A stretch of 64,000 bases of DNA from Parcubacteria group bacterium (GCA_943350175.1 CALQZX010000002.1:66061-130060), one strand, 5' to 3'. Numbered from the stretch's first letter, positions 43,514-58,138 are shown. Notes: a model not told the origin generated them from the sequence alone. Numbers and translations are program-made.

Positions 43514-44641
43514 ATGAAATCAGCCATTTATGCCTTTTCTGGCGACCCAATTACTTTTGGTCATTTGGATATTATTAAGCGCGCTGCAGCCGTTTTTGAC
43601 CGTTTAGTGGTGGCGATTGGCGTTAATCCAAGTAAGAAGTATCTTTTTTCTCTGGAAGAGCGTACTGAAATGGCCCGTCGCTCCTTGCTCAATCTCACTA
43701 ATGTCGAAGTTAAGTCATTTTCTGGCATGCTAGTGGATTTTGCTTACGAAAATAATATCAATGTAATTGTTAAAGGTGTGCGTAGTAGCAATGACTTTGA
43801 ATATGAAATGAGCTTACATAATTTGGGTGAAAGTCAGAAACTTGGTATTGATACCTTTATTCTCTTTGCCAAACCAAGCCTGGCTCACATCAGCTCAAGT
43901 GCTGTCAAAGACATTCAGAAGGAACAAGGCTTGATTCAAGATTATGTCCCACCTTACGTCAAACAATGTGTGGAAGCCAAATTGAGTGGCCAATACATCA
44001 TTGGTCTAACTGGTGAAATTGGTGCTGGTAAATCCTATGTTGGAGAAAAGCTGGTAGAGCTGGCCAAAGCAATGAATTTGGAAGCTCATAACATCGAACT
44101 GGATCATTTATCTTGGCAAATCCAGGACGATCTCAAAGAAGAAAAATACGAAGTAGTGCGTAAGCAAATTATTGATACTTTTGGCGCTGAAGTCGGCAAT
44201 GCTGACGGCAGTATTAATCGCAAAGCGCTTGGTGAAATTGTTTTTGCTGATCAAAAAAAGTTAGAGCGTCTCAATGAAATTATGGATACGCCAATTCTAG
44301 TGCGCTTGCGTCGTGAGCTCAAAGATAAAAAAGGTCTAATTTTCCTCAATGCCTCTTTGCTCGCTGAAGCTGGTATGGGTCAGCTTAGTAACTGCAATAT
44401 GATTCTTTTGTCTGTGGATGAAGCGACTCAAGAACAAAGATTGCTCGATAGAGATTTGGATAAAGAGCAGATTAAAAGAAGACTGATGAGTCAATACGAT
44501 TTTGTACACAAGAAAGAACAACTGGAAAAAGAAATTGAAATGAACAGACAGGGAAAATTGTGGGTGATGGAGAGTGAGGATTACGGAATAGTCAATTTAT
44601 TGGAATCTATTATTAGCTATTTTCAATTAAAAAATAAATGA
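43514..44641 (+). CDS. bifunctional phosphopantetheine adenylyltransferase / dephospho-CoA kinase (CoaD-CoaE fusion)
   Basis: 375 aa. N-terminal PPAT motifs (FSGDPITFGHLDII, KGVRSSNDFEYE, ISSSAVKDI). C-terminal DPCK P-loop IGLTGEIGAGKS. Confidence 0.8.
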   Translation: MKSAIYAFSGDPITFGHLDIIKRAAAVFDRLVVAIGVNPSKKYLFSLEERTEMARRSLLNLTNVEVKSFSGMLVDFAYENNINVIVKGVRSSNDFEYEMSLHNLGESQKLGIDTFILFAKPSLAHISSSAVKDIQKEQGLIQDYVPPYVKQCVEAKLSGQYIIGLTGEIGAGKSYVGEKLVELAKAMNLEAHNIELDHLSWQIQDDLKEEKYEVVRKQIIDTFGAEVGNADGSINRKALGEIVFADQKKLERLNEIMDTPILVRLRRELKDKKGLIFLNASLLAEAGMGQLSNCNMILLSVDEATQEQRLLDRDLDKEQIKRRLMSQYDFVHKKEQLEKEIEMNRQGKLWVMESEDYGIVNLLESIISYFQLKNK

Positions 44642-48481: not shown

Positions 48482-48592
48482 ATGAACAAAATAATCGAAA
48501 AAATTCTCCAAAATCAGAATATCTCCGAACAAGAAATCAAGACAATAATTACTGATCAAACCTACGGGCAACCGTGGAGTGATGAGGAATAA
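48482..48592 (+). CDS. candidate 36-aa peptide (MNKIIEKILQNQNISEQEIKTIITDQTYGQPWSDEE) translationally coupled to the sensor kinase
   Basis: ORF below the 60-aa track cut-off. Its TAA stop overlaps the kinase ATG (TAATG). Weak Shine-Dalgarno. Confidence 0.3.
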   Translation: MNKIIEKILQNQNISEQEIKTIITDQTYGQPWSDEE

Positions 48593-49980
48593 TGAATTTT
48601 AAAAATATATTATTAACTTTTGAAGAAAATTGGTCAGAAGATAAAATAAGAAAAAGCTATCTTTTGAATTTAATTAACGCTGGTTTATTTATTTTTCTTG
48701 TTTCTATCATTGCAATTCGAATCTTAGGAGAAATGTTTTTCAATGCATCTTCAAACAAAGAAAGTTTTGTGGTTTTGTTCTCTATTCTTTTACTTTTGAG
48801 TTTTATGATCTTTTTAGTGAAAAAGGGATTTGTTCGAATTGTAGCTTTCTCAATTTTGATTTTGTTGTTAGCCTCTTCTTTAAAAGGCAGTTTTACGTGG
48901 GGATTAGATCTTTATACAGTTGATATGATGTATCCGCTGATTATCTTGTTGAGTGCTATTTTAATTAGCTCAAAATTTTCTTTTTTCATGCTCTTTATTA
49001 TTTGCTTTAATTTATCTCTGATATTTATTTTGCAAGAAAATGGATATTCATTTGCAAGTTCCGCATGGAAGCTATCCACACCGAGTTTCCTGAATTTATT
49101 AACCATTTTGCTTATTTATACTTTGATGACCTTTCTATCCTGGTTGTCATCCAGGGAAATTGAAAAATCTTTAAATAAATCAAGGATTTTGGCTAGCAAA
49201 CTCAAAATGCAGAATGAAAACCTTGAGCAAATAGTTGAAGAAAGAACAAAAGAATTAAAAGTATTGCAGTTAAATCAGCTGACCAGAATTGCTCCGCTTT
49301 TAGATCTTGGAAAGTTATCTGCCGGTCTAATTCATGACGTCAGAGAACCTTTAGCAGTTTTAAGTTTTATTATGCAAAATGCAAGTCAAAATAAAAACAT
49401 AGTAAAAGATTTGGATGAGGCTTTTTTGGCAATTAATAAAATAGATGAACTTTCAAAAATGAGCGCTTGTCAGCTGTTCAGTGAACCCGAATTAGAAATT
49501 TTTAATTTAAATCAAGAAATAAAAAAAATTATTAGTTTATTTGAATATAAAACTAGACTCAGAAAAGTAAGGATTATTTTTGAAACAAATAAAGAATATG
49601 ACTTGCATGCTGACCGATCAAAGTTGAATCAAGTAATAGCCAATTTGATTTTAAATTCATTAGAAGCTTATGAATTTTCTGAAAGTAAAGAAAAATATAT
49701 TTTTATAAAATTAATTAAAAAGCCGAGGAACTTGTTAATTAAAATTAAAGACTATGGAATTGGAATTAATCAAGAAAATTTAATTCACATTTTTGAACCA
49801 AACTTTTCATCCAAAGATAATAAAGAATTTTTGGGGTTTGGCCTCTATGTTAGTCAAGAAGCAATGAAGAAAGTTTTTGAAAGTAGAATTGGATTTGAAA
49901 GTGAAGCTGAAGCTGGTTCTGAATTTACGCTTTTTATAAAAAATAAATTTATTCTCAATGAATTCGCTAAAAGCCATTAA
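48592..49980 (+). CDS. sensor histidine kinase (polytopic N-terminal sensor domain)
   Basis: 462 aa. ~7 TM helices, H-box region (LIHDVREPL), HATPase N box (LILNSLEA), G1 (IKDYGIGI) and G2 (GFGLYV) boxes. Confidence 0.7.
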   Translation: MNFKNILLTFEENWSEDKIRKSYLLNLINAGLFIFLVSIIAIRILGEMFFNASSNKESFVVLFSILLLLSFMIFLVKKGFVRIVAFSILILLLASSLKGSFTWGLDLYTVDMMYPLIILLSAILISSKFSFFMLFIICFNLSLIFILQENGYSFASSAWKLSTPSFLNLLTILLIYTLMTFLSWLSSREIEKSLNKSRILASKLKMQNENLEQIVEERTKELKVLQLNQLTRIAPLLDLGKLSAGLIHDVREPLAVLSFIMQNASQNKNIVKDLDEAFLAINKIDELSKMSACQLFSEPELEIFNLNQEIKKIISLFEYKTRLRKVRIIFETNKEYDLHADRSKLNQVIANLILNSLEAYEFSESKEKYIFIKLIKKPRNLLIKIKDYGIGINQENLIHIFEPNFSSKDNKEFLGFGLYVSQEAMKKVFESRIGFESEAEAGSEFTLFIKNKFILNEFAKSH

Positions 49981-51769
49981 TTATTTAGAAAATCATTATC
50001 TTGATGATAATCAAGCACTTTTTCCAATTATCTTAATTTTAAATTCTCTAAATAGTTGCCAATTGAAGGGGGCTAATAAAATAAAGAAAGAAATTTTCTC
50101 GTTCCTTATTAAGGAAAAATCATCGAATAACTCATTTAATTATTGGTGCAAAGATTCGGCTAGTTATTTAAAAGAGCCATATCCAAATGATCTGGATGAC
50201 ACTTTTTGTGCTTGGGAGGCTTTGTTTCATTTTGATAAAGAAATTATCAATGAACTCGTTCTATTAGATTTGAGCAAGATTTTGCTTCTCAATCAAAAGA
50301 AAAATTCTGGACCATATTTTACTTGGATTGTGAATAAGAATGATTTTCCAAAATGGAAGAATATTGACCTGTTGGTTAATATAAACATAGCTAGATTTTT
50401 AACATCTCAGAAGATTTTAGTTAAGGGTTTGGACGAGTTTATAGATGAAAAGATATTATCTGAAGACTTGTCATCAGTTTATTACAAAGGAGAATTGGCG
50501 AGTTTATATTTTTTAAGCTATTTTTATAAAGGACAACTTAAAAATAAAATTAAAGAAAAATTAATTTTGTATCTAAATCAAAAGACCTCAGATAGTTCAA
50601 TGATTCTTTTATTTATCGCAACTATTCGTTTTGGTTTTGAAGATTTACTAATCAGTGAGCACTTAAAAATAATTTCATCGTTACAAGAAAAAGATGGTTC
50701 GGTTAATTCTTTTGATTTTTATAATTATAGAAATCAAAAAACTGGTGAGAAATGTTATGGCAGCAAATCGCTGAGCACTGCTTTTTTCTTGGAATTATTA
50801 ATGCTTCTAGAAAAAATGAAACTTAATAAAAAAGAGTCAAAATTAAAAAGTGATTTAATGAGTGTGTTTAAGCAAAAAACTTCGATTCTGAAAGATGAAA
50901 AGATAGAGGAAATACTTGTTAAAAAGGCTAATTCTATTATTAATGGCAAGGAAAGCGATTTAGCCATATTCTTACCAAGGCAGCTGATTATTTCTTTAAA
51001 AAAGAAGGTTAGAATTGGTGACGAAATTATTCTCAGATTATCATTAATTAATCTTTTTGCTTGGCTAGCTTACACAATTTATGATCACATCAATGATCAA
51101 GAAGGAGATTTTGACAAATTACCGATTGCCAATTTAGTTTTTCAGTTGCTTATTAAAGAAGTTTTATTACTACCTAATGGCGCATTCTATCTTTACAAGA
51201 TTATTAATCTTTTCACGATGATGGAAAAGAATTTTTTAGAAGAATTAAATTTTTATCGATTTGATAATCAACCTTGGATGAAAATCTCTGAAATTAATGA
51301 ATCAAAAATTAAAATTTTTTTATATAACAAATCAATTGGTCAGATTTTTTCAGTTTATTTTTTATTGGATTATCTTGAGTTGAAAGACAAGAAAATTATC
51401 TTGGCGATTTTACGTAATCTGATTTTGATAAAACAGATGAATGATGATGCTCACGATTGCTTCAAAGACCTGAGTGCTGGGCAAATCAATAGTGTTAATT
51501 ATATTTTACTCAAACACATTTCCTCTGAGGAAAATAGAAATCAGTTCTTATGTAAAAAAATAGAGGAATTAAAAATTATTTATTATAAAGAAATTATTCC
51601 AGTTTTTTCAAAAAAAATATTCTTATACATTAAAAAAACTAAAAGCTTATTAATTCGACAGACTTTATTAAAAGAAGATGACTTTTTTATGAAAGTTTTA
51701 TCTAAGTATGAAAATATAACTAAGGAAGGTCTAAGGGAAAGAACAAATCTTATCAATTATCTAAACTGA
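49958..51769 (+). CDS. hypothetical alpha/alpha-toroid repeat protein with class-II-terpene-cyclase-like DxDDT motif
   Basis: 603 aa, 23-nt overlap with the kinase gene. Motif YPNDLDDTFCAWEAL, several Q-x3-5-G/S-x-(W/F/Y) repeat-like segments (QKKNSGPYFTW, LQEKDGSVNSFDFY), and a DDxxD (NDDAHD) in the C-terminal half. Confidence 0.5.
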   Translation: MNSLKAINYLENHYLDDNQALFPIILILNSLNSCQLKGANKIKKEIFSFLIKEKSSNNSFNYWCKDSASYLKEPYPNDLDDTFCAWEALFHFDKEIINELVLLDLSKILLLNQKKNSGPYFTWIVNKNDFPKWKNIDLLVNINIARFLTSQKILVKGLDEFIDEKILSEDLSSVYYKGELASLYFLSYFYKGQLKNKIKEKLILYLNQKTSDSSMILLFIATIRFGFEDLLISEHLKIISSLQEKDGSVNSFDFYNYRNQKTGEKCYGSKSLSTAFFLELLMLLEKMKLNKKESKLKSDLMSVFKQKTSILKDEKIEEILVKKANSIINGKESDLAIFLPRQLIISLKKKVRIGDEIILRLSLINLFAWLAYTIYDHINDQEGDFDKLPIANLVFQLLIKEVLLLPNGAFYLYKIINLFTMMEKNFLEELNFYRFDNQPWMKISEINESKIKIFLYNKSIGQIFSVYFLLDYLELKDKKIILAILRNLILIKQMNDDAHDCFKDLSAGQINSVNYILLKHISSEENRNQFLCKKIEELKIIYYKEIIPVFSKKIFLYIKKTKSLLIRQTLLKEDDFFMKVLSKYENITKEGLRERTNLINYLN

Positions 51770-51783
51770 TCTCCCAAAAGCTC

Positions 51784-52416
51784 ATGCGACTGTTAATTTT
51801 TAGTCAAGATAATCAACTATTAAGATTCTTTACTGCAAACTTCCCTAAAAAAGCAATTTCAGACATAGTTTTTTCTAAAGAAGATTTTTTTACCAATTTC
51901 TACTTATATGATTATGATTTAATTTTGTTAGATCTGTTATTTGTGGGAAATAATTATTGCGATTTAATTAAAGAGGTTAGAGAAGAGAATAAAAGAATTT
52001 CAATTATTTGTTTATTTGGAAAAGACAAATTTCCAAATTTGGCTGAAACTTTATCTTTACAAATAAATTATTTATTATTTAAGCCAGATTTGTTTAGTCA
52101 AAATTTGCAAACAAATTCTCTTAATTTATTAAAATTTGATCAAGAAGCAGATCTTTTCTTTACAAGAAATAGAATGCTTAAATTAAGCAAACAAGAACAT
52201 CTCTTATTAAAATTTTTATTTTTAAATCAGCATAAATTTAATTCAAAATTAGAGATAGCCAGAAAGATATTGAAAGAGTCTTATCTCATTGGCTCTAATC
52301 TAGTTGATGTTTACATTTACAGGCTGAGAAAAATTTTAGGAAGCGAATCATCAGGAGTAAAAATAATAAACCGAAAAAATTTTGGTTATAAAATTACTGC
52401 TTGTACAGATTCATAA
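51784..52416 (+). CDS. OmpR-family response-regulator-like protein (atypical receiver + winged-helix DNA-binding domain)
   Basis: 210 aa. Phospho-acceptor-like Asp in DLILLDL, K-P in KPDLF, acidic pocket DN instead of DD. C-terminal winged helix (…VDVYIYRLRKIL). Confidence 0.6.
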   Translation: MRLLIFSQDNQLLRFFTANFPKKAISDIVFSKEDFFTNFYLYDYDLILLDLLFVGNNYCDLIKEVREENKRISIICLFGKDKFPNLAETLSLQINYLLFKPDLFSQNLQTNSLNLLKFDQEADLFFTRNRMLKLSKQEHLLLKFLFLNQHKFNSKLEIARKILKESYLIGSNLVDVYIYRLRKILGSESSGVKIINRKNFGYKITACTDS

Positions 52417-52578
52417 ATTTTGTTATTTTATTTCTTGCTGTGGAATATAGTGAAAATCTATAACTGTGCCGCAACGGTGATTCCTTAGGGATTAGTCCGA
52501 TCTTCAGCAAAAGAGATATTCTTGACGAGCATCGAGTTAGAGTTATTTTGTAGACTTTAATTTTCTACCACAATCGAT

Positions 52579-52600
52579 GCTCCCTGAGGGGAGCTTTTTT
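52579..52600 (+). terminator. intrinsic terminator; its 5' stem arm can alternatively pair with 52527-52534
   Basis: GCTCCC-TGAG-GGGAGC followed by T6. The upstream octamer GAGCATCG (52527-52534) is exactly complementary to CGATGCTC (52575-52582), which overlaps the terminator stem. Confidence 0.55.
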
Positions 52601-52676
52601 GTCTAAAGACCAAGGTAAAGCAATTTATTTATTTTGCTCCAAGGGTTTTCCTTGCGGAGCTAGTGAAAGGTCTGAA

Positions 52677-53390
52677 ATGTCAAAAGAAGAAGGCAGGAAA
52701 GCTTTAGAAATGGCTGGAAGCATTGGAGTTGGTGCGAGCGAAATGGGGGCAAACTGGGCCTCACTCAACACACTTAACTTTTCCTCAATCTTAGAAAATT
52801 TAGGTCAAGAAATCGGGATGAGCAGTTTTGAATGGCAAAAAATTTTATCTCAGGCTGGTTTGTGGATGATAGATGGCTTAGATGCAAGAATTACTAATTT
52901 GCAAAACAAGGCTGTCGAACAGAGCACAGCAATTGAATTAAGACAGATGTTTGGCGTGCCAATTTCTTTACTAGCAATGCCTGTTTTCGTTGAATTGGAA
53001 GGCATGGAATTAGCTGCAAAGATTGATCTGAAACAAGAAGCATTGGCAACTTCTCAACTATGGGAGCAAATTAATAATAGGTTGCTTTATGCTATTCAGT
53101 TGTTTTTGGCAGAACAAATTAATTTGGTAGAAGAAGATAAGCTTGCGCATGAAGCAGCCTTGACTGAGTCAAAAAAGGAAGCAGATGATGTCCCTGCCTT
53201 GGCAGAAACAATTCAAAGAATAGGAGAAAAATTCAAATTAAAGCTGGCAGAGTTGGAAAAAAATAAAGATTCTTTATTAAATGCTTTTTCAAAAGTAAGC
53301 AAAAATACCATTGCTTCCGTTGAAAGAGTTTTCGAGACGACGGTTTTTAGTGCGCGAGGACAGAGTTTGACTACGGTTTCTATAAAATAA
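52677..53390 (+). CDS. hypothetical protein
   Basis: Start placed at the ATG at 52677 (GAAAGG 7 nt upstream). The tracked TTG start at 52599 lies inside the terminator T-tract. ~237 aa, helical, no motif recognised. Confidence 0.45.
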   Translation: MSKEEGRKALEMAGSIGVGASEMGANWASLNTLNFSSILENLGQEIGMSSFEWQKILSQAGLWMIDGLDARITNLQNKAVEQSTAIELRQMFGVPISLLAMPVFVELEGMELAAKIDLKQEALATSQLWEQINNRLLYAIQLFLAEQINLVEEDKLAHEAALTESKKEADDVPALAETIQRIGEKFKLKLAELEKNKDSLLNAFSKVSKNTIASVERVFETTVFSARGQSLTTVSIK

Positions 53391-53557: not shown

Positions 53558-54229
53558 ATGAAGAGGATCTTAATTCTTGAGAGCGATTGGCTTGTTTTAT
53601 CTACTCTAAATGATTATCTAAAAAAGAAGGGCTGTCTAGTAAATTGTGCTCAAACAATTGAGAGAGCCAAAGTCTTACTTCTTAAACATAAATTCGACCT
53701 ATTTATTTGCGAACGCATCTTGGAAGAGGGTGACGTTTTAGATTTTTTAGATTCTATTAAAGAGAAAAAACTATTCATGAGGGTCTTGGTTGTCAGTCAA
53801 AAAAAATCATTATTAGATAGAATTGATACTTTAAAATTAGCCAACGATTTTCTAGCCAAACCATTTAATTCAACTGAACTTTATTTGAAAATTGACAATC
53901 TGCTGAATTTAGAAAGAATTGGCGGCGATGAATTCATAGAAAATTCACTTTTTTTGCTTAAAGATTCAGCTGGCTTAGAAAATAAAAATCATTTTCGTCC
54001 TCAAGAATTAAAAATTCTTGAATGTCTCCTCAAGCATAAGAATATGGTAATTTCTTATGAGACGATCTCCTCATATGTTTGGGGTTATAGAGATTCGTTC
54101 CCTCTTAAAAAAACCATTAGTGTCTATATTAGAAGAATAAGGACTAAGCTATTCTTACAAAATTTGAAGATCATGACTGTCAAAAATAGAGGTTATAAGC
54201 TTATTGATTTAAAGGAAAAAAGCATTTAA
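53558..54229 (+). CDS. OmpR-family response regulator
   Basis: 223 aa. Receiver domain (MKRILILESD…, DLFICE) and C-terminal winged helix (…ISVYIRRIRTKL). Confidence 0.65.
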   Translation: MKRILILESDWLVLSTLNDYLKKKGCLVNCAQTIERAKVLLLKHKFDLFICERILEEGDVLDFLDSIKEKKLFMRVLVVSQKKSLLDRIDTLKLANDFLAKPFNSTELYLKIDNLLNLERIGGDEFIENSLFLLKDSAGLENKNHFRPQELKILECLLKHKNMVISYETISSYVWGYRDSFPLKKTISVYIRRIRTKLFLQNLKIMTVKNRGYKLIDLKEKSI

Positions 54230-54671
54230 CGGTAGTGCCTCTATTTTTTTTGGAAAATATTTTTAGATATCCGCCAAATTCTTTTTTTATTTCTTTATTA
54301 ATTTTTTGAAGATCTGATTCTTTGGACCCATCTCCTAGAATTAATATACTTTGTTGGAGCAGCTTCTTGGAAAGAAAAGATATGCCGCTTCCACCATCAG
54401 TTATGCTCAACGACAGCTCTTTTTCACTTTCTAATTTGCTGGTTAATAAAATAATTTTATTTGGTATTTTTTTTGGATATGCTTTTTTAGCTTGTTTAAT
54501 TAAACTAAAAATTAGTCCTTGGAAAATAGCTTCGTTCCCAATAATCTCAAGTTCTTTTGGAACGTCTATTTTGCAACTATAAATAAAACCTTTTTTAATT
54601 AAAGAACTGAGAGTTATGACTTCTCTAATTTTTTGATTAACAGGAATTTTTCTCGCTTCAATTCGCTTCAT
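54201..54671 (-). CDS. stand-alone histidine-kinase-type ATPase domain (HATPase_c only; possible kinase remnant)
   Basis: 156 aa. N box (GNEAIFQGLIFSLIKQA), G1 (ITDGGSGIS), G2-like (GDGSKE…GGYL). No HisKA/H-box, no TM region. Convergent with and overlapping the regulator gene by 29 nt. Confidence 0.4.
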   Translation of the reverse strand: MKRIEARKIPVNQKIREVITLSSLIKKGFIYSCKIDVPKELEIIGNEAIFQGLIFSLIKQAKKAYPKKIPNKIILLTSKLESEKELSLSITDGGSGISFLSKKLLQQSILILGDGSKESDLQKINKEIKKEFGGYLKIFSKKNRGTTVKCFFPLNQ

Positions 54672-54715: not shown

Positions 54716-56197
54716 CTATGGATTTGCTATCTCTATCTCCCACACCTCCAAACACGGTGCGCCATTTGGCCTACAGAAGCTCGCTAGACGCTGTTTAGGC
54801 GGTATTTCCATCTTTAAGCGGTGTGAATTAACCACCAATAATTTCAAGTCAAATCCTTCAGCCTTTTCCCAGAAACTTTTCGGAATATTTCGGACAGGTT
54901 GGCCAATGCCTTCCACATAAATATTTTTCACATCTTGATTGTGTAAATTTAGCAGAATTCCATCTGGTAGTGTCCCAAAATAACCCTCCGTTGCTACCGC
55001 CACCTTTTGCGTCTTAGCCAATTCTTGAATCATCTCTGTCACTTCCTTAATTCCGTGTCCAGAAGACCATTCTTGCAAGAATTGCTCGCGATCAACTTTG
55101 CTCAATTGCAGCTGATCGACATTAAAGTAAGCATTTTTGATAAACATTGCATAAGGCAAAATAATCAGCAGCAAAGCCAAATACCTAATAACTTTCTTCT
55201 CACGTAAATTATGGAGAGTAATAGCCGCTGAACTGAGGAAAAAGAAAGCGCTTGGCAGTATGTAGCGAGGATAAATGATTTTGCCAAGCAAAACCAAAGG
55301 CAAAATAAACAATATTCCAGATAAAAATAAAACCGTTTGTTTGCGACGAGTTTTGGCAAAAGCTGGCAAAGCCAAAACCAAGATCACTGGGCCTAAATAA
55401 GTCATCAATTGTTCCATAAAGAAAGTAGTATTGTGAACAATTACTGGCCAGATGGCAGTAGAAAAAATCACTTCTTTGCTTTGCAGGAAATTACCACCGA
55501 CCGCAAATAATTGACTGAATAAAGGTACGACTTTGAAACTGGCAAATGCCAAGCCAGCCAAAAGCAAACCAGCACTAATTTTCAAGCCTTTTTCGACAAT
55601 CAATTTAAGAGTGAGTTTCTCCTCAAAGAAAATTGCCAGATAGAAAACCGGCATGAAAAGCAAGGCTGGAGTTTTGCTCATGATTGCTAGGAAGAAAAAA
55701 CCCGCTAATCCTAGAATTGCCCACAGACTTTTGTTTTTCACAATCAACAAAGTGAAATAATAAGCCACGATTAGATTCGCCAAGAGCAAAGCATCGGTAA
55801 TGGCCAGGCGATTGTGAAAGAAGATAAAAGGATTAATGATTGCCAAAAACATCGCCAGGTAAGCGGCTGATTTTTCTTTAAGCTTGGCCAAGATCAGGAA
55901 AATAAAAGACACACTCACTGCTCCGGCCAAAACCGAGACTAATCTAGCAGCGTAGAGCTGATCGCTAAAGAAGTGTAGAAAAGGCACCATTAACCACATC
56001 AAGAGTGGAGTCTTGCCATCGTTCATAGGATAGAAAAGGTAGCGATTAAAATCATCGATAATCAATTGAGCCCAACGAATATAGATTGATTCATCGGCAA
56101 AGACTGGCAAAGCAGTCAAATGAAAAAGCTGTAGTGCAAAATACAAAACCAAGAGCAATAAAAAGAAAAACCAAGCTTTATTCTTCACGCTTCCCAT
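54716..56197 (-). CDS. GT-C glycosyltransferase, family 39 (PMT/ArnT-like polyprenyl-phosphate-sugar-dependent transferase)
   Basis: 493 aa, ~11 TM helices, N-terminal loop DE motif (VFADESIYIRWAQ) as in PMT/ArnT enzymes. Confidence 0.65.
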   Translation of the reverse strand: MGSVKNKAWFFFLLLLVLYFALQLFHLTALPVFADESIYIRWAQLIIDDFNRYLFYPMNDGKTPLLMWLMVPFLHFFSDQLYAARLVSVLAGAVSVSFIFLILAKLKEKSAAYLAMFLAIINPFIFFHNRLAITDALLLANLIVAYYFTLLIVKNKSLWAILGLAGFFFLAIMSKTPALLFMPVFYLAIFFEEKLTLKLIVEKGLKISAGLLLAGLAFASFKVVPLFSQLFAVGGNFLQSKEVIFSTAIWPVIVHNTTFFMEQLMTYLGPVILVLALPAFAKTRRKQTVLFLSGILFILPLVLLGKIIYPRYILPSAFFFLSSAAITLHNLREKKVIRYLALLLIILPYAMFIKNAYFNVDQLQLSKVDREQFLQEWSSGHGIKEVTEMIQELAKTQKVAVATEGYFGTLPDGILLNLHNQDVKNIYVEGIGQPVRNIPKSFWEKAEGFDLKLLVVNSHRLKMEIPPKQRLASFCRPNGAPCLEVWEIEIANP

Positions 56198-57386
56198 TAA
56201 ATAGGAAAACTACCCCACTAAGCAAGAGGTAGAAAGCTGGAATTAGCCAAGTAACGGCTTTTTGCAGAGGTTCCAAACTACTGGTGTCCAAATGAAAACT
56301 CATCCAAGGAATGTAATAAAACCAAGGCACATTGCGAAGTAGAGAAGATAGTGAAAAAACGATCAATAAATTACGCCAAAATTTAATTTTTACCATTGGT
56401 ACAAAAATCAAAGACCATAATAAATACCAAGGCAAAAATTGCTTGGAACGATCAGTGAGGAGTGGCGCAAACATGGCCAAACTCATCAGCTCGTAGCTAT
56501 ATTTCTCTATTAGCTGAAATAACTTTATCTTGCTGCCAAGTTTTTCTTTAACCAAGAAATAGCCGATGAAAGGCAATAAAACTACCGTGGCAAATTTAAT
56601 CGAAATGGAAAAAACCATCAACAGCACGATCAAAATAATTCTCAGCAACTTGTTTTTCTTAAACTCGCTCGCCAAATAAACAGCCAAAAGCGCTGGTGCC
56701 AGCATCCATAAATCGTTGTGAGCGCTGCTAAGAATTTCGATCAAAACTAGTGGGTTGAGAAAGAAAAGAGCAAGCTTTTGATAATTTTCTTTTTTGAAGA
56801 ATTTTTCGCTAATTAATAAGGTGAGTAATAAAGATAAAAAGGCAAATAATTTAAAGACAAAAAAAGTACTTAGGAATTTGCCAAATCCCGCCACATACGG
56901 CGCTAGAGATAAGGCTGTCCAACCATAGCCATAAGGAGCTGGTGTATGGGTATTATTCATAAAGCGTAGCAATGGATCATTGGCAAAATCCAAAGCAGTT
57001 TTGATGTGCGGATTGGTGCCATATTCGACTACCATTTTGGCGTTAAAAATATAATTAAAGAGATCATGAGAAAGGCCATTATAAGAAAGAATTAAAGGCA
57101 AACTAATAATAATTAAAAATTGCCAAAAGTTTTTTCTAGAATTTAAATTTAATTTTTCAAAGTTTTTGAGAATTAATAAATAATTAGCAAAAATTAAAAC
57201 AACTAAGACAAAAAAGAAAACGGTGCGAAAACTTTGCAGTGGTAAGACATTTTTCCAGAGATAAGTTTGAAAATTTACAAACCAATCATATTTAAGTAAG
57301 ATTAAATTTGGATCAGCAACCACAAAAGAAAACAGCGCGAAAATCACGAAAAGAAAAAAATAAGAAATCAACCAAAATTTTTTCAT
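56178..57386 (-). CDS. polytopic membrane protein (probable GT-C-fold glycosyltransferase or associated protein)
   Basis: 402 aa, >10 TM helices, overlaps its neighbours by 20 and 4 nt (operon). Confidence 0.45.
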   Translation of the reverse strand: MKKFWLISYFFLFVIFALFSFVVADPNLILLKYDWFVNFQTYLWKNVLPLQSFRTVFFFVLVVLIFANYLLILKNFEKLNLNSRKNFWQFLIIISLPLILSYNGLSHDLFNYIFNAKMVVEYGTNPHIKTALDFANDPLLRFMNNTHTPAPYGYGWTALSLAPYVAGFGKFLSTFFVFKLFAFLSLLLTLLISEKFFKKENYQKLALFFLNPLVLIEILSSAHNDLWMLAPALLAVYLASEFKKNKLLRIILIVLLMVFSISIKFATVVLLPFIGYFLVKEKLGSKIKLFQLIEKYSYELMSLAMFAPLLTDRSKQFLPWYLLWSLIFVPMVKIKFWRNLLIVFSLSSLLRNVPWFYYIPWMSFHLDTSSLEPLQKAVTWLIPAFYLLLSGVVFLFNGKREE

Positions 57387-58138
57387 TGCTTTGGATATTT
57401 ATTTGTCCAATCAGCCATTTTGATCTTCAAAATATCAGTGAACATCAAAATAGAATCTCTCACTGGACTGACGCGATCAGTTTGGAAGTGTTTCCAAAGA
57501 ATTGGCACTTCTTGCATGCCAAAGTTATATTTTTTGGCTAAATATAAAAGTTCGACATCAAAAGCACCAGTAAAAGCATCTTGGCGATTATCTTTGCCGG
57601 AGTAAATATAAAGGCTTTCAAAAAGTTTGATAGTGGCTTTTTCTGAAAACAACTTAAAACCACATTGGCTATCTTGAGTACCTGGAACGGCTAATAATTG
57701 CACAACTAAATTGAAACCTCGACCCATGATGTGCCTATAAAAAGGTTCTTTTTCTCTCTTGGCACCAATAATCTCTCTGGAGCCAAAAATAACCTCATGT
57801 TCACTAGTGTATTTCAGTAATTTACGAACTTCACGAAGGGGAGTTGATTGATCAAAGTCAGTAAAAAGTCTCCAACTACCGGTTGCTTGTAACATACCAG
57901 CTTTGACGGTTGGACCCTTGCCCTTATGTTGATTGAGGACAACTTTAATTCTTTCATCTTTTTTACTGAATTTTTGAAGTTCTTCAACTGTGTCATCGGT
58001 GCTACCGTCATCAGATAAAACGAGCTCCCATGATCTTTCATAGTCCTTCAAAAATTGAAGAACTTCCTCAAGTACTCCACGAGCAATGTTTTTACTTTCA
58101 TTGTAGGAAGGTAAGACTACTGATAGATATGGTTTCAT
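57383..58138 (-). CDS. GT2 polyprenyl-phosphate glycosyltransferase (Dpm1/Ppm1-like)
   Basis: 251 aa. VVLPSYNE, LSDDGSTDDT (DxD) motifs of GT2 dolichyl/polyprenyl-phosphate hexose synthases. Confidence 0.75.
   Translation of the reverse strand: MKPYLSVVLPSYNESKNIARGVLEEVLQFLKDYERSWELVLSDDGSTDDTVEELQKFSKKDERIKVVLNQHKGKGPTVKAGMLQATGSWRLFTDFDQSTPLREVRKLLKYTSEHEVIFGSREIIGAKREKEPFYRHIMGRGFNLVVQLLAVPGTQDSQCGFKLFSEKATIKLFESLYIYSGKDNRQDAFTGAFDVELLYLAKKYNFGMQEVPILWKHFQTDRVSPVRDSILMFTDILKIKMADWTNKYPKQ

Follow-up and report, generated by a model that had tools for sequence, protein, structure and literature searches.

A terpene cyclase fused to a prenyltransferase-like domain is encoded in a conserved peptide and kinase cassette of CPR bacteria

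CPR bacteria (Patescibacteria) account for a large part of bacterial diversity and have tiny genomes. To our knowledge, specialised metabolism is almost absent from them, and we know of no signalling chemistry in them. Why, then, would one of them encode a terpene cyclase beside a histidine kinase? The question arises from a 64,000-nucleotide stretch of DNA from a Parcubacteria group bacterium (GCA_943350175.1, CALQZX010000002.1:66061-130060), which we call the window. An initial annotation, made from the sequence alone, had described a 603-amino-acid protein similar to squalene-hopene cyclase within a two-component operon, and considered this unusual for such a lineage. The open reading frame is present exactly as claimed, and the two-component genes are there as well (see the E values in Table 1), but a small peptide gene just upstream of the kinase had been overlooked. 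Our preferred reading, to which we give a probability of roughly 0.6, is that the 603-amino-acid protein acts as the maturase in a conserved, ComQXPA-like peptide cassette of the CPR.

Table 1. Features of the locus (positions counted from the first nucleotide of the window)
Feature	Position	Strand	Basis or remarks
Precursor-peptide gene, 36 codons, product MNKIIEKILQNQNISEQEIKTIITDQTYGQPWSDEE	48482..48592	+	homologous ORFs at the equivalent position in related loci
Polytopic histidine kinase	48592..49980	+	HATPase_c E=1e-15 (Pfam), C-terminal; H-box GLIHDVREPL
Two-domain enzyme gene, 603 aa, ATG start	49958..51769	+	cyclase domain N-terminal, prenyltransferase-like domain C-terminal
N-domain, residues ~1-290, single alpha/alpha-barrel class II terpene cyclase beta domain	49958..50827	+	profile, Foldseek, AF2
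DxDD general-acid motif D78-L79-D80-D81	50189..50200	+	invariant 119/119; aligned with AsDMS
C-domain, residues ~300-603, all-helical trans-isoprenyl-diphosphate-synthase fold	50855..51766	+	Foldseek, hhalign, homologue Pfam matches
FARM-like first Asp-rich motif D376-H-I-N-D380	51083..51097	+	D376/D380 invariant; aligned with FARM of neighbouring IDS (hhalign)
SARM-like DDxxD, Q493-M-N-D496-D497-A-H-D500-C-F-K-D504	51434..51469	+	invariant Gln/Asp; aligned with IDS FQIxDD (hhalign)
OmpR-type response regulator, degenerate receiver	51784..52416	+	Trans_reg_C E=1e-12; Response_reg E=6e-4, below curated cut-off
Second OmpR-type regulator, related to 51784..52416	53558..54229	+	Response_reg 8e-12, Trans_reg_C 2.5e-15 (Pfam)

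A class II cyclase domain fused to a prenyltransferase-like domain

The 603-amino-acid protein is an acid-type terpene cyclase fused to a prenyltransferase-like domain. It has no match in Pfam or NCBIfam, so routine annotation could not have yielded the terpene-cyclase call. The YP-x-D-x-DDT motif that the initial annotation had recognized is real, but it occupies residues 75-89 (YPNDLDDTFCAWEAL) rather than ~74-88. Similarly, the DDxxD of the C-terminal half is a functional-looking, SARM-like motif (NDDAHD) that lies at residues 495-500 instead of ~490. The two repeat-like segments were also located (QKKNSGPYFTW at residues 113-123 and LQEKDGSVNSFDFY at residues 242-255). In an alignment of 119 homologues, the three aspartates of the DLDDT segment (D78, D80, and D81) are conserved in every sequence, as are P76, N61, Y62, G118, Y120, D137, N141, and Y176 and, in the C-terminal half, D376, D380, Q493, D496, D497, D500, and D504. 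This invariance of the presumed catalytic residues spans more than 100 sequences at 25-30% identity. Judged from the alignment, these motifs are far beyond chance. The subclade that includes the window protein departs from the family at several near-invariant residues (W58N, E113Q, D135N, D377H, N426F, W428E, H462Q, and W501C).

The claim of a class II terpene-cyclase motif was borne out by structure prediction: the AF2 model (pLDDT 93.9, pTM 0.89) contains an alpha/alpha barrel, joined to the C-domain by a long helix (residues 270-311), and Foldseek matched this N-domain to the drimenol synthase AsDMS (9mhs_A) at E=1e-7 over 320 columns. When the family profile was compared to the PDB, it matched the cyclase domain of AsDMS (9mhs/9m7d) at E=5.9e-16 and AstC at E=4.6e-6. 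D78, D80, and Y176 align with AsDMS D321, D323, and Y417. D323 is the general acid of AsDMS (PMC12232559, PMC12365925), which places D80 at the general-acid position, and Y417 is the catalytic tyrosine that hydrogen-bonds with the general-acid motif (PMC12365925). As in AsDMS, AstC, and MstE, the N-domain is a single beta domain with its active site within the barrel, and besides the D-x-D motif and its tyrosine partner, it shares aromatic pocket residues with AsDMS (F22, W63, and Y75 align with F271, F308, and F318). However, AsDMS and AstC are fused to a HAD phosphatase, not to a domain like isoprenyl diphosphate synthases (IDS), and they have DxDT instead of DxDD.

Another difference concerns the substrate. 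AsDMS binds the diphosphate with R368, R370, R415, and R503 (PMC12232559). In the profile alignment, equivalents of these four arginines are absent: their positions are occupied by W133, D135 (Asn in the window protein), Pro, and Ala. The substrate of the N-domain is therefore probably not FPP, and we rejected drimenyl-PP or drimenol synthase as the identity of this protein because the basic diphosphate-binding cluster is missing. MstE, which cyclises a prenyl chain borne by an aromatic head group, is closer than AsDMS in this respect.

The proposed resemblance to squalene-hopene cyclase holds in part. Both have a DxDD(T) general-acid motif within an alpha/alpha toroid as well as QW-like repeat segments, but squalene-hopene cyclases have a beta-gamma pair of barrels, whereas this protein has one barrel fused to an IDS-like domain, a squalene-sized cavity between domains is not expected, and the genomic setting is a peptide/kinase cassette. 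With one barrel of ~290 amino acids and no Pfam match for the window protein, we rejected a squalene-hopene or oxidosqualene cyclase of the beta-gamma type. Among 68 homologues, 31 do match SQHop_cyclase_C; overall, about half of the homologues have weak or partial matches to SQHop_cyclase_C or _N, most of them below threshold.

The C-domain matches FPPS, OPPS, and GGPPS structures (Foldseek E=4e-5 to 1e-3, target-normalised TM 0.57-0.72). A comparison of its family with a family of bona fide IDS encoded nearby gave P=9e-4 (hhalign), with FARM, KT, and FQxxDD in register. Across the family, the FARM-like motif has the consensus YDDFLD and the SARM-like motif RQLNDDAHD, with the glutamine three residues before DDxxD. 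Relative to the neighbouring IDS, the chain-elongation regions (GKxxR of region I, RRG after FARM, and the GK loop after SARM) are absent or unaligned, and the C-domain lacks the basic residues of the IPP site in canonical synthases. None of the 68 family members tested matches PF00348 (polyprenyl_synt) at E<=0.1. Two homologues pass the Pfam thresholds for Terpene_synth_C (26.6 bits, cut-off 26.3) or Terpene_syn_C_2, which is marginal, and residues 464-520 have a weak phmmer match to ent-kaurene synthase (4w4r). With the methods used here, no sequence-level match of the C-domain to ComQ, Ord1, or StheQ was detected, and its profile yielded nothing but spurious matches in the PDB.

A glutamine one helical turn before the SARM or pseudo-SARM is common to the Trp-prenylating IDS-like enzymes that are described in PMC13290415 (section 2.4) and 10.64898/2026.08.29.745113; in StheQ, the equivalent is Q212-x-x-N215-D216 (10.64898/2026.08.29.745113). 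The invariant Q493-x-x-D496-D497-x-x-D500 fits this pattern as described there for ComQ, PalQ, StheQ, Ord1, and the P-domain of ChrPC. ComQ and StheQ have the FARM motif as well, but they have a pseudo-SARM (NDxxx) where this family has a full DDxxD, and they lack the additional class II cyclase domain. By analogy to these enzymes, we propose that the C-domain is a Trp prenyltransferase.

A conserved cassette with a small Trp-containing peptide

Rather than being unusual in CPR, the enzyme has relatives in 1,534 clusters (at 50% identity and E<=1e-30) and in at least 301 species-representative genomes. We surveyed the context of the best 80 related loci, which are from Saccharibacteria, Microgenomates, Parcubacteria, Doudnabacteria, and CPR2; among these 80, the enzyme is restricted to CPR. 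The regulator is present in 67 loci and the kinase in 64 (in the same ortholog clusters as the kinase and the 51784..52416 regulator of the window). The usual order is regulator, peptide, kinase with 5-6 transmembrane helices, and enzyme, while in the window it is peptide, kinase, enzyme, and regulator. The two-component context is a conserved cassette and is not incidental.

The genes are tightly packed. In the window, the stop codon of the peptide gene overlaps the start codon of the kinase gene by 1 nt (TAATG), the kinase and enzyme genes overlap by 23 nt, and 14 nt separate the enzyme from the regulator; across the 80 loci, the kinase and enzyme genes are typically spaced by -3 to +5 nt. 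The enzyme gene is translationally coupled to the kinase gene. We found no terminator-like site between 48482 and 52416. Sixteen loci have a gene for a bona fide polyprenyl synthase (polyprenyl_synt, Pfam E=4e-51) immediately 3' of the enzyme gene. No exporter, leader peptidase, or immunity gene is conserved in the cassette across the 80 loci. In the window, genes for polyprenyl-phosphate-dependent glycosylation lie near the cassette.

From hydropathy, the kinase has six predicted transmembrane helices within residues 24-185, with short loops; its 64 orthologues most often have 5-6, and the median of their longest loops is 29 amino acids. Its only Pfam matches are to HATPase_c, and HisKA_3 was not matched. 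The regulator at 51784..52416 retains the acceptor Asp, and its acidic pair is weakened to Q-D.

Equivalent peptides of 34-40 amino acids are encoded at the same position in 71 of the 80 loci, and seven of the other nine loci are on contigs that end too near the upstream side of the enzyme gene to hold a peptide gene. An xLTDKxxR leader is common to the peptides, as is one Trp, usually in a Pro-Trp pair, 1-6 residues before the stop, while the middle and core are highly variable. We tabulated 69 peptides (from 68 loci and the window): 66 have a single Trp and 59 have Pro-Trp. The leader Leu is kept in 67 of 68 and the leader Arg in 64 of 68. The pattern was found on the plus strand of 60 loci versus the minus strand of four, and the gene callers of independent pipelines also annotated the small gene in three loci (L082, L083, and L084). 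The window peptide is 72-86% identical to those of L001 and L082, and its leader deviates from the family, with QNQNIS in place of TDKSAR. Given a conserved cassette with a small Trp-containing precursor, the enzyme likely acts on a ribosomal peptide together with a prenyl diphosphate, and not on free FPP, GGPP, or squalene by itself.

Proposed role in peptide maturation and signalling

Small peptides with a prenylated Trp have precedents in comQXPA (PMC4008528, PMC5331326), in PalP-PalX-PalQ (PMC10853753), and in StheQ/StheX, where the Trp of StheX is second from the C-terminus (10.64898/2026.08.29.745113). In all of these, as here, the precursor has a Trp a few residues from its C-terminus and a highly variable middle or core. 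Like comQXPA, the CPR cassette has four co-oriented, overlapping genes that encode an IDS-like maturase, a precursor, a polytopic kinase, and a regulator, and it looks like an undescribed peptide-signalling system. However, its genes run in the order RR-X-P-Q (X-P-Q-RR in the window), and the peptides are 34-40 amino acids instead of the 52-73 of comQXPA-type precursors. The regulator is OmpR-type rather than NarL/ComA-type, and the kinase has 5-6 transmembrane helices and matches HATPase_c only, whereas ComP has 8-10 and HisKA_3. We therefore rejected orthology of the kinase and regulator to ComP and ComA; the likeness is of architecture only.

The closest parallel for the enzyme may be NctPC and, above all, ChrPC, fused maturases of RiPPs that first attach a prenyl group to a Trp and subsequently cyclise that group (PMC13290415 section 2.4, citing Hubrich et al. 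2024, Chem 10:3224). In that section's account, the prenyltransferase part of ChrPC is trans-IDS-like, its cyclase part is MstE-like, and prenylation is with C10-C20 groups. Compared by that description, both systems combine a prenyltransferase or prenyltransferase-like domain and a mono-domain class II cyclase in one polypeptide, along with a Trp-containing ribosomal precursor; in the CPR family, the cyclase comes first and is followed by the IDS-like domain. By the same description, the CPR system differs in that its precursors are merely 34-40 amino acids with their own leader motif (xLTDKxxR) and in that the enzyme sits in a kinase/regulator cassette that, in the best 80 loci, is restricted to CPR.

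From the domain architecture and the genomic context, we infer the following chemistry and signalling role. The C-domain would bind an allylic prenyl diphosphate, most plausibly C15-C20, ionise it, and, like ComQ, PalQ, and StheQ, pass the prenyl group to the Trp indole of the peptide. The N-domain would then accept the peptide-bound chain, which carries no diphosphate; this would explain why the diphosphate-binding arginines of AsDMS are absent. D80 would protonate the terminal double bond, and the chain would be cyclised to a polycyclic terpenoid, with the same logic as in MstE, NctPC, and ChrPC. The processed lipopeptide would be exported and sensed by the polytopic kinase, which would signal via the regulator in a pheromone or autoinducer circuit. 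The product of the cassette is probably sensed by the kinase. More tentatively, at somewhat less than even odds, the CPR would have an ancient and near-ubiquitous form of cell-cell signalling whose pheromone is a short ribosomal peptide with a polycyclic terpenoid on its C-terminal Trp, made by the fusion enzyme and read by a dedicated polytopic kinase.

If so, it would rank as the first dedicated means of communication to be described for CPR and as the first terpenoid-cyclised peptide pheromone. If the proposed chemistry is correct, the range of Trp-prenyl peptide pheromones would come to include CPR in addition to Firmicutes and Chloroflexi, and the recently discovered cyclised-isoprenoid modification of RiPPs would be linked to signalling. 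The cassette would then be a four-gene module, of a size that can be reconstituted in E. coli, for studies of kin or density sensing in episymbiotic ultra-small bacteria, and biocatalysis would be able to draw on thousands of naturally occurring variants of this compact peptide-terpenoid maturase.

Other explanations for the cassette

The protein might instead be a bifunctional class II/class I terpene synthase that makes a free polycyclic terpenoid, such as a hopanoid-like lipid, from FPP, GGPP, or a longer substrate, with the two-component system acting in membrane homeostasis and the peptide being an unrelated kinase-associated micro-protein. We think that this is unlikely. DxDD and two Asp-rich motifs are invariant, as such an enzyme would have them; the marginal matches of two homologues to Terpene_synth_C or Terpene_syn_C_2 are the only sequence-level Pfam matches of the C-domain; and the weak match to 4w4r and the adjoining polyprenyl synthase in 16 loci point the same way. 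A kinase that lacks a large extracellular loop could respond directly to the membrane, and as squalene-hopene cyclase is reported to be absent from CPR (PMC7306690), a surrogate cyclase is conceivable. However, this explanation does not account for a near-universal peptide with a conserved Pro-Trp at its C-terminus, the missing arginines argue against a prenyl-diphosphate substrate in the class II step, and it is IDS enzymes, not class I cyclases, that the C-domain matches best in structure.

Alternatively, the Trp might be prenylated and the chain cyclised as we propose, with a product that is an antimicrobial or host-directed RiPP, so that the two-component system would serve only in autoinduction or immunity, like NisRK for nisin. 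CPR cells are attached to hosts, many of the peptide cores are hydrophobic or amphipathic, and the part of PMC13290415 that covers NctPC and ChrPC describes them among RiPP natural products, not in signalling. We doubt this explanation: transporter, immunity, and protease genes are not conserved in the 80 loci, the minimal layout of four overlapping genes mirrors comQXPA and agr-type signalling cassettes (PMC4008528), and the cassette is near-core in CPR genomes, which would be atypical for a toxin.

That the protein is a non-catalytic accessory or sensor, which binds an isoprenoid diphosphate such as undecaprenyl-PP and reports envelope status to the kinase, would fit with the translational coupling and with the nearby glycosylation genes in the window, but it is very improbable, as it leaves the Trp peptide unexplained and pseudo-enzymes normally lose their catalytic residues, while DxDD, its Tyr partner, and both Asp-rich motifs are invariant across the divergent homologues.

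We also note that under our preferred reading, that of a peptide-maturation cassette, the second OmpR-type regulator downstream may belong to the same circuit. In an alignment, it has Glu at the phospho-acceptor position (FICERIL, versus LILD in its relatives). The TC-RR-RR synteny of the window is also found in L001 and L084.

A conserved two-domain enzyme of CPR bacteria

The initial annotation described a 603-amino-acid protein with a motif like that of squalene-hopene cyclases (SHC). The open reading frame and its sequence features are as described: the DDT-type motif segment is at residues 75-89 (YPNDLDDTFCAWEAL), the repeat-like segments are at residues 113-123 (QKKNSGPYFTW) and 242-255 (LQEKDGSVNSFDFY), and NDDAHD, which had been placed near residue 490, is at residues 495-500. 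The protein had no usable match in Pfam or NCBIfam. A protein search found 132 relatives, nearly all full length (600-660 amino acids), from metagenome-assembled genomes of the candidate phyla radiation (CPR, or Patescibacteria). An exhaustive profile search of 50% identity clusters found 3,485 clusters at E ≤ 1e-3 and 1,534 at E ≤ 1e-30, and nearly all of these matched end to end.

In an alignment of 119 sequences, the aspartates of the DLDDT motif (D78, D80, and D81) are invariant, as are P76, N61, Y62, G118, Y120, D137, N141, and Y176 in the N-terminal part and W369, D376, D380, E429, Q493, D496, D497, D500, and D504 in the C-terminal part, so strong selection acts on the DxDD motif and on the Asp-rich motif of the C-terminal half. 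The AlphaFold2 model of the window protein is confident (mean pLDDT 93.9, pTM 0.89).

The family profile matches the cyclase beta domain of the drimenol synthase AsDMS (9mhs and 9m7d; E = 5.9e-16) and fungal AstC (E = 4.6e-6), and the first ~290 residues of the model superpose on AsDMS (Foldseek E = 1e-7). In the family profile alignment, D78 and D80 correspond to D321 and D323 of AsDMS (which PMC12365925 numbers D331 and D333), of which D323 serves as general acid (PMC12232559). Y176 falls opposite the Tyr that forms a hydrogen bond with this acid, and the cation-pi residues F271, F308, and F318 have F22, W63, and Y75 as their counterparts. In place of the four arginines of AsDMS that hold the diphosphate of FPP (R368, R370, R415, and R503), our family has W133, D135, Pro, and Ala. 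This mapping indicates that the N-terminal domain is equipped for catalysis like a mono-domain class II cyclase, but without the diphosphate-binding mouth.

The SHC-like reading in the initial annotation holds for the class II acid motif and fold, but not for the SHC-type double barrel. As the protein has just one barrel, we rejected membership in the SHC family. Pfam's SQHop_cyclase and TED_complement gave only partial matches, each to 31 of the 68 homologues that were scanned (all members of the 119-member alignment), and SHC is reported to be missing from CPR (PMC7306690). We also rejected drimenyl-diphosphate synthase because the diphosphate-binding arginines are absent.

For the C-terminal domain (residues ~300-603), the closest structural matches are trans-isoprenyl diphosphate synthases (IDS), including FPPS and octaprenyl-, hexaprenyl-, and geranylgeranyl-PP synthases (Foldseek E = 4e-5 to 1e-3; target-normalised TM 0.57-0.72). 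Profile-profile alignment to the genuine polyprenyl synthase family that is encoded nearby in some loci gave P = 9e-4 across 220 columns, with the functional motifs in register. Specifically, YDDFLD of our family aligns with the first Asp-rich motif (FARM) of the polyprenyl synthase, K/R458-S459 with the KT motif, R-Q493-L-N-D-D-A-H-D with FQIxDD, and D504-L-x-x-G-x-I-N with DIxEGKxT. In this alignment, the RRG after the FARM, the GK loop after the second Asp-rich motif (SARM), and the N-terminal GKxxR are absent from the C-terminal domain. None of the 68 scanned homologues matched Pfam's polyprenyl_synt, and a profile of this domain alone had only spurious short matches in PDB sequences (to p14 and Mdm4). 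The enzyme had one weak phmmer match to a bacterial ent-kaurene synthase entry. We place the domain in the type I isoprenoid synthase superfamily, and we predict that it binds and ionises an allylic diphosphate and does not elongate it. We rejected a chain-elongating IDS because the residues of the IPP site are missing and the neighbouring gene often encodes a true IDS.

A four-gene cassette with a Trp peptide

Scanning a single genome for each species, we found relatives in 301 genomes, and we compared the 80 best loci. These are from Saccharibacteria, Microgenomates, Parcubacteria, Doudnabacteria, CPR2, and unclassified Patescibacteria, and a few have other automatic labels. Loci L001, L004, L011, L014, L015, L017, L066, L079, and L080 have the cassette in a CPR-like context, with record titles that name Gammaproteobacteria, Pseudomonadales, Bdellovibrionales, Sulfotelmatobacter, Methylomirabilota, or Vitreimonas; these names are probably automatic mislabels.

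We clustered every ORF in the 80 loci to count the neighbours. An OmpR-type response regulator adjoins the enzyme gene in 67 loci and a histidine kinase (~468 amino acids) does so in 64. Most often the genes run regulator, kinase, enzyme, and the last two overlap or almost touch. The kinases have 5-6 predicted transmembrane helices in the first ~190 residues, with short loops only. In 16 of the 80 loci, the gene directly 3' of the enzyme gene encodes a genuine polyprenyl synthase (Pfam E = 4e-51), mostly with a 4-nt overlap (L006, L007, L010, L018, L019, L042, L045, L052, L060, L068, L072, L078, and others). This synthase has 345 amino acids and an intact FARM and SARM. Small residues (Leu, Ala/Gly) at -4 and -5 before its FARM are a weak hint that its product is C20 or longer. 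Apart from the regulator, kinase, and polyprenyl synthase, the clustering revealed no recurring neighbour.

The ~200-nt "intergenic" gap between the regulator and the kinase contains a strong Shine-Dalgarno sequence (GAAAGGAGGTGA) and a small ORF. A systematic search found a gene of 34-40 codons in 71 of the 80 loci, and in 7 of the other 9, the contig ends too near the 5' side of the enzyme gene to hold it. The search pattern occurred on the coding strand of 60 loci versus the opposite strand of 4. We tabulated 69 peptides (from 68 loci and the window). Exactly one Trp is present in 66 of them; the Trp is 1-6 residues ahead of the stop and is directly preceded by Pro in 59. The N-terminus is conserved as (I/V/L)-L-T-D-K-x-x-R (Leu in 67/68 and Arg in 64/68), and the central part varies greatly from peptide to peptide. 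Equivalents of 34-36 amino acids beside the homologues P0002, P0005, and P0009 were annotated by other pipelines' gene callers, and they end in ...TYGQPWSDEE, ...TFGDPWSGEE, and ...AASPWAG. In the window, the peptide is MNKIIEKILQNQNISEQEIKTIITDQTYGQPWSDEE and its stop overlaps the kinase start codon, so the operon is peptide, kinase, enzyme, and regulator. No terminator-like site was found within this operon, and a promoter scan of this AT-rich region did no better than with shuffles.

In the subclade of the window protein (P0001-P0008, and locus L001), near-invariant enzyme residues are changed (W58N, E113Q, D135N, D377H, N426F, W428E, H462Q, and W501C), and the peptide leader is without the charged TDKxxR motif (QNQNIS in the window). 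The leader and the enzyme may co-vary, but this is only a hint because it is a single lineage event.

Features of the window
Feature	Position	Strand	Length
Phosphopantetheine adenylyltransferase/dephospho-CoA kinase fusion-like protein (presumed)	43514-44641	+	375 aa
Trp peptide	48482-48592
Histidine kinase	48592-49980
Two-domain enzyme	49958-51769	+	603 aa
OmpR-type regulator	51784-52416
AdoCbl-II riboswitch	52424-52514	+
Terminator-like hairpin	52579-52594
ORF	52599-53390		263 aa
Second OmpR-type regulator	53558-54229	+
HATPase_c-only kinase fragment	54201-54671	-	156 aa
Glycosyltransferase block	54716-58138	-

Proposed role in making a prenylated peptide signal

In the comQXPA system of Bacillus, the small precursor ComX carries a Trp close to its C-terminus; the IDS-like ComQ prenylates this residue, and a polytopic kinase and a regulator sense the product (PMC4008528, PMC5331326). 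PalP-PalX-PalQ (PMC10853753) and StheQ/StheX (10.64898/2026.08.29.745113) are related systems. The layout of our cassette is alike. A Gln one turn of helix ahead of the second Asp motif is common to IDS-like enzymes that prenylate Trp (PMC13290415), and the invariant Q493 matches it. In NctPC and ChrPC, as described in section 2.4 of PMC13290415 (citing Hubrich et al. 2024), a Trp prenyltransferase is fused to an MstE-like class II cyclase; the Trp is prenylated first and the prenyl group is then cyclised. If the substrate of the N-terminal domain is a peptide-bound prenyl chain, then it is expected to lack a diphosphate site.

Given the comQXPA-like layout, Q493, the precedent of NctPC and ChrPC, and the missing diphosphate site, we propose that the C-terminal domain would prenylate the Trp of the peptide; the N-terminal domain would cyclise the prenyl chain, with D80 initiating; the peptide would be processed and exported; and the kinase would sense it. 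The data show how the domains are arranged, which motifs are conserved, and that the genes are linked; the chemistry, prenyl chain length, and signalling role are what we infer. The enzyme would act like a ChrPC-type maturase set in a comQXPA-like circuit. The likeness to ChrPC is drawn from its description in PMC13290415, and we could not connect the enzyme to ComQ at the sequence level. The cassette's kinase and regulator are of another type than ComP and ComA.

A class II/class I synthase of free terpenoids would fit the marginal Pfam matches to terpene synthases (two members narrowly pass the thresholds of the class I C-terminal families), but it would leave both the Trp peptide and the loss of the AsDMS-type arginines unexplained, and we consider it unlikely. 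It is also doubtful that the same Trp prenylation and cyclisation yields an antimicrobial RiPP: we looked for transporter, protease, and immunity genes among the downstream genes of the 80 loci, and only the polyprenyl synthase recurs. That the enzyme is a non-catalytic sensor is contradicted by its invariant catalytic residues and seems very improbable.

Our literature searches on CPR/Patescibacteria gave no account of the proposed peptide-maturing cassette or of the enzyme family; the fused-maturase study of Hubrich et al. (2024) may mention CPR homologues. The cassette is a very large, uncharacterised, lineage-wide system, and the proposed four-gene mechanism is directly testable.

Other features of the window

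Directly 3' of the cassette's regulator gene is an AdoCbl-II cobalamin riboswitch (Rfam RF01689; 46 bits versus a gathering score of 36.5), followed by a terminator-like hairpin and then an ORF whose product has no match in Pfam. In a reduced genome, a B12 riboswitch that controls an unknown protein may point to a new B12-related transporter or binding protein.

In the second OmpR-type regulator, Glu replaces the phospho-acceptor Asp (FICERIL), which could be a phospho-mimic. The 3' end of its gene is overlapped by the convergent kinase fragment, and locus L084 has the same arrangement. The convergent block beyond encodes a PMT_2-family glycosyltransferase, a 402-amino-acid polytopic membrane protein, and a family-2 glycosyltransferase, and looks like a polyprenyl-phosphate-dependent glycosylation module. 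Upstream of the cassette is a protein that, by eye, looks like phosphopantetheine adenylyltransferase (N-terminal GDPITFGHLD) fused to dephospho-CoA kinase (GLTGEIGAGKS).
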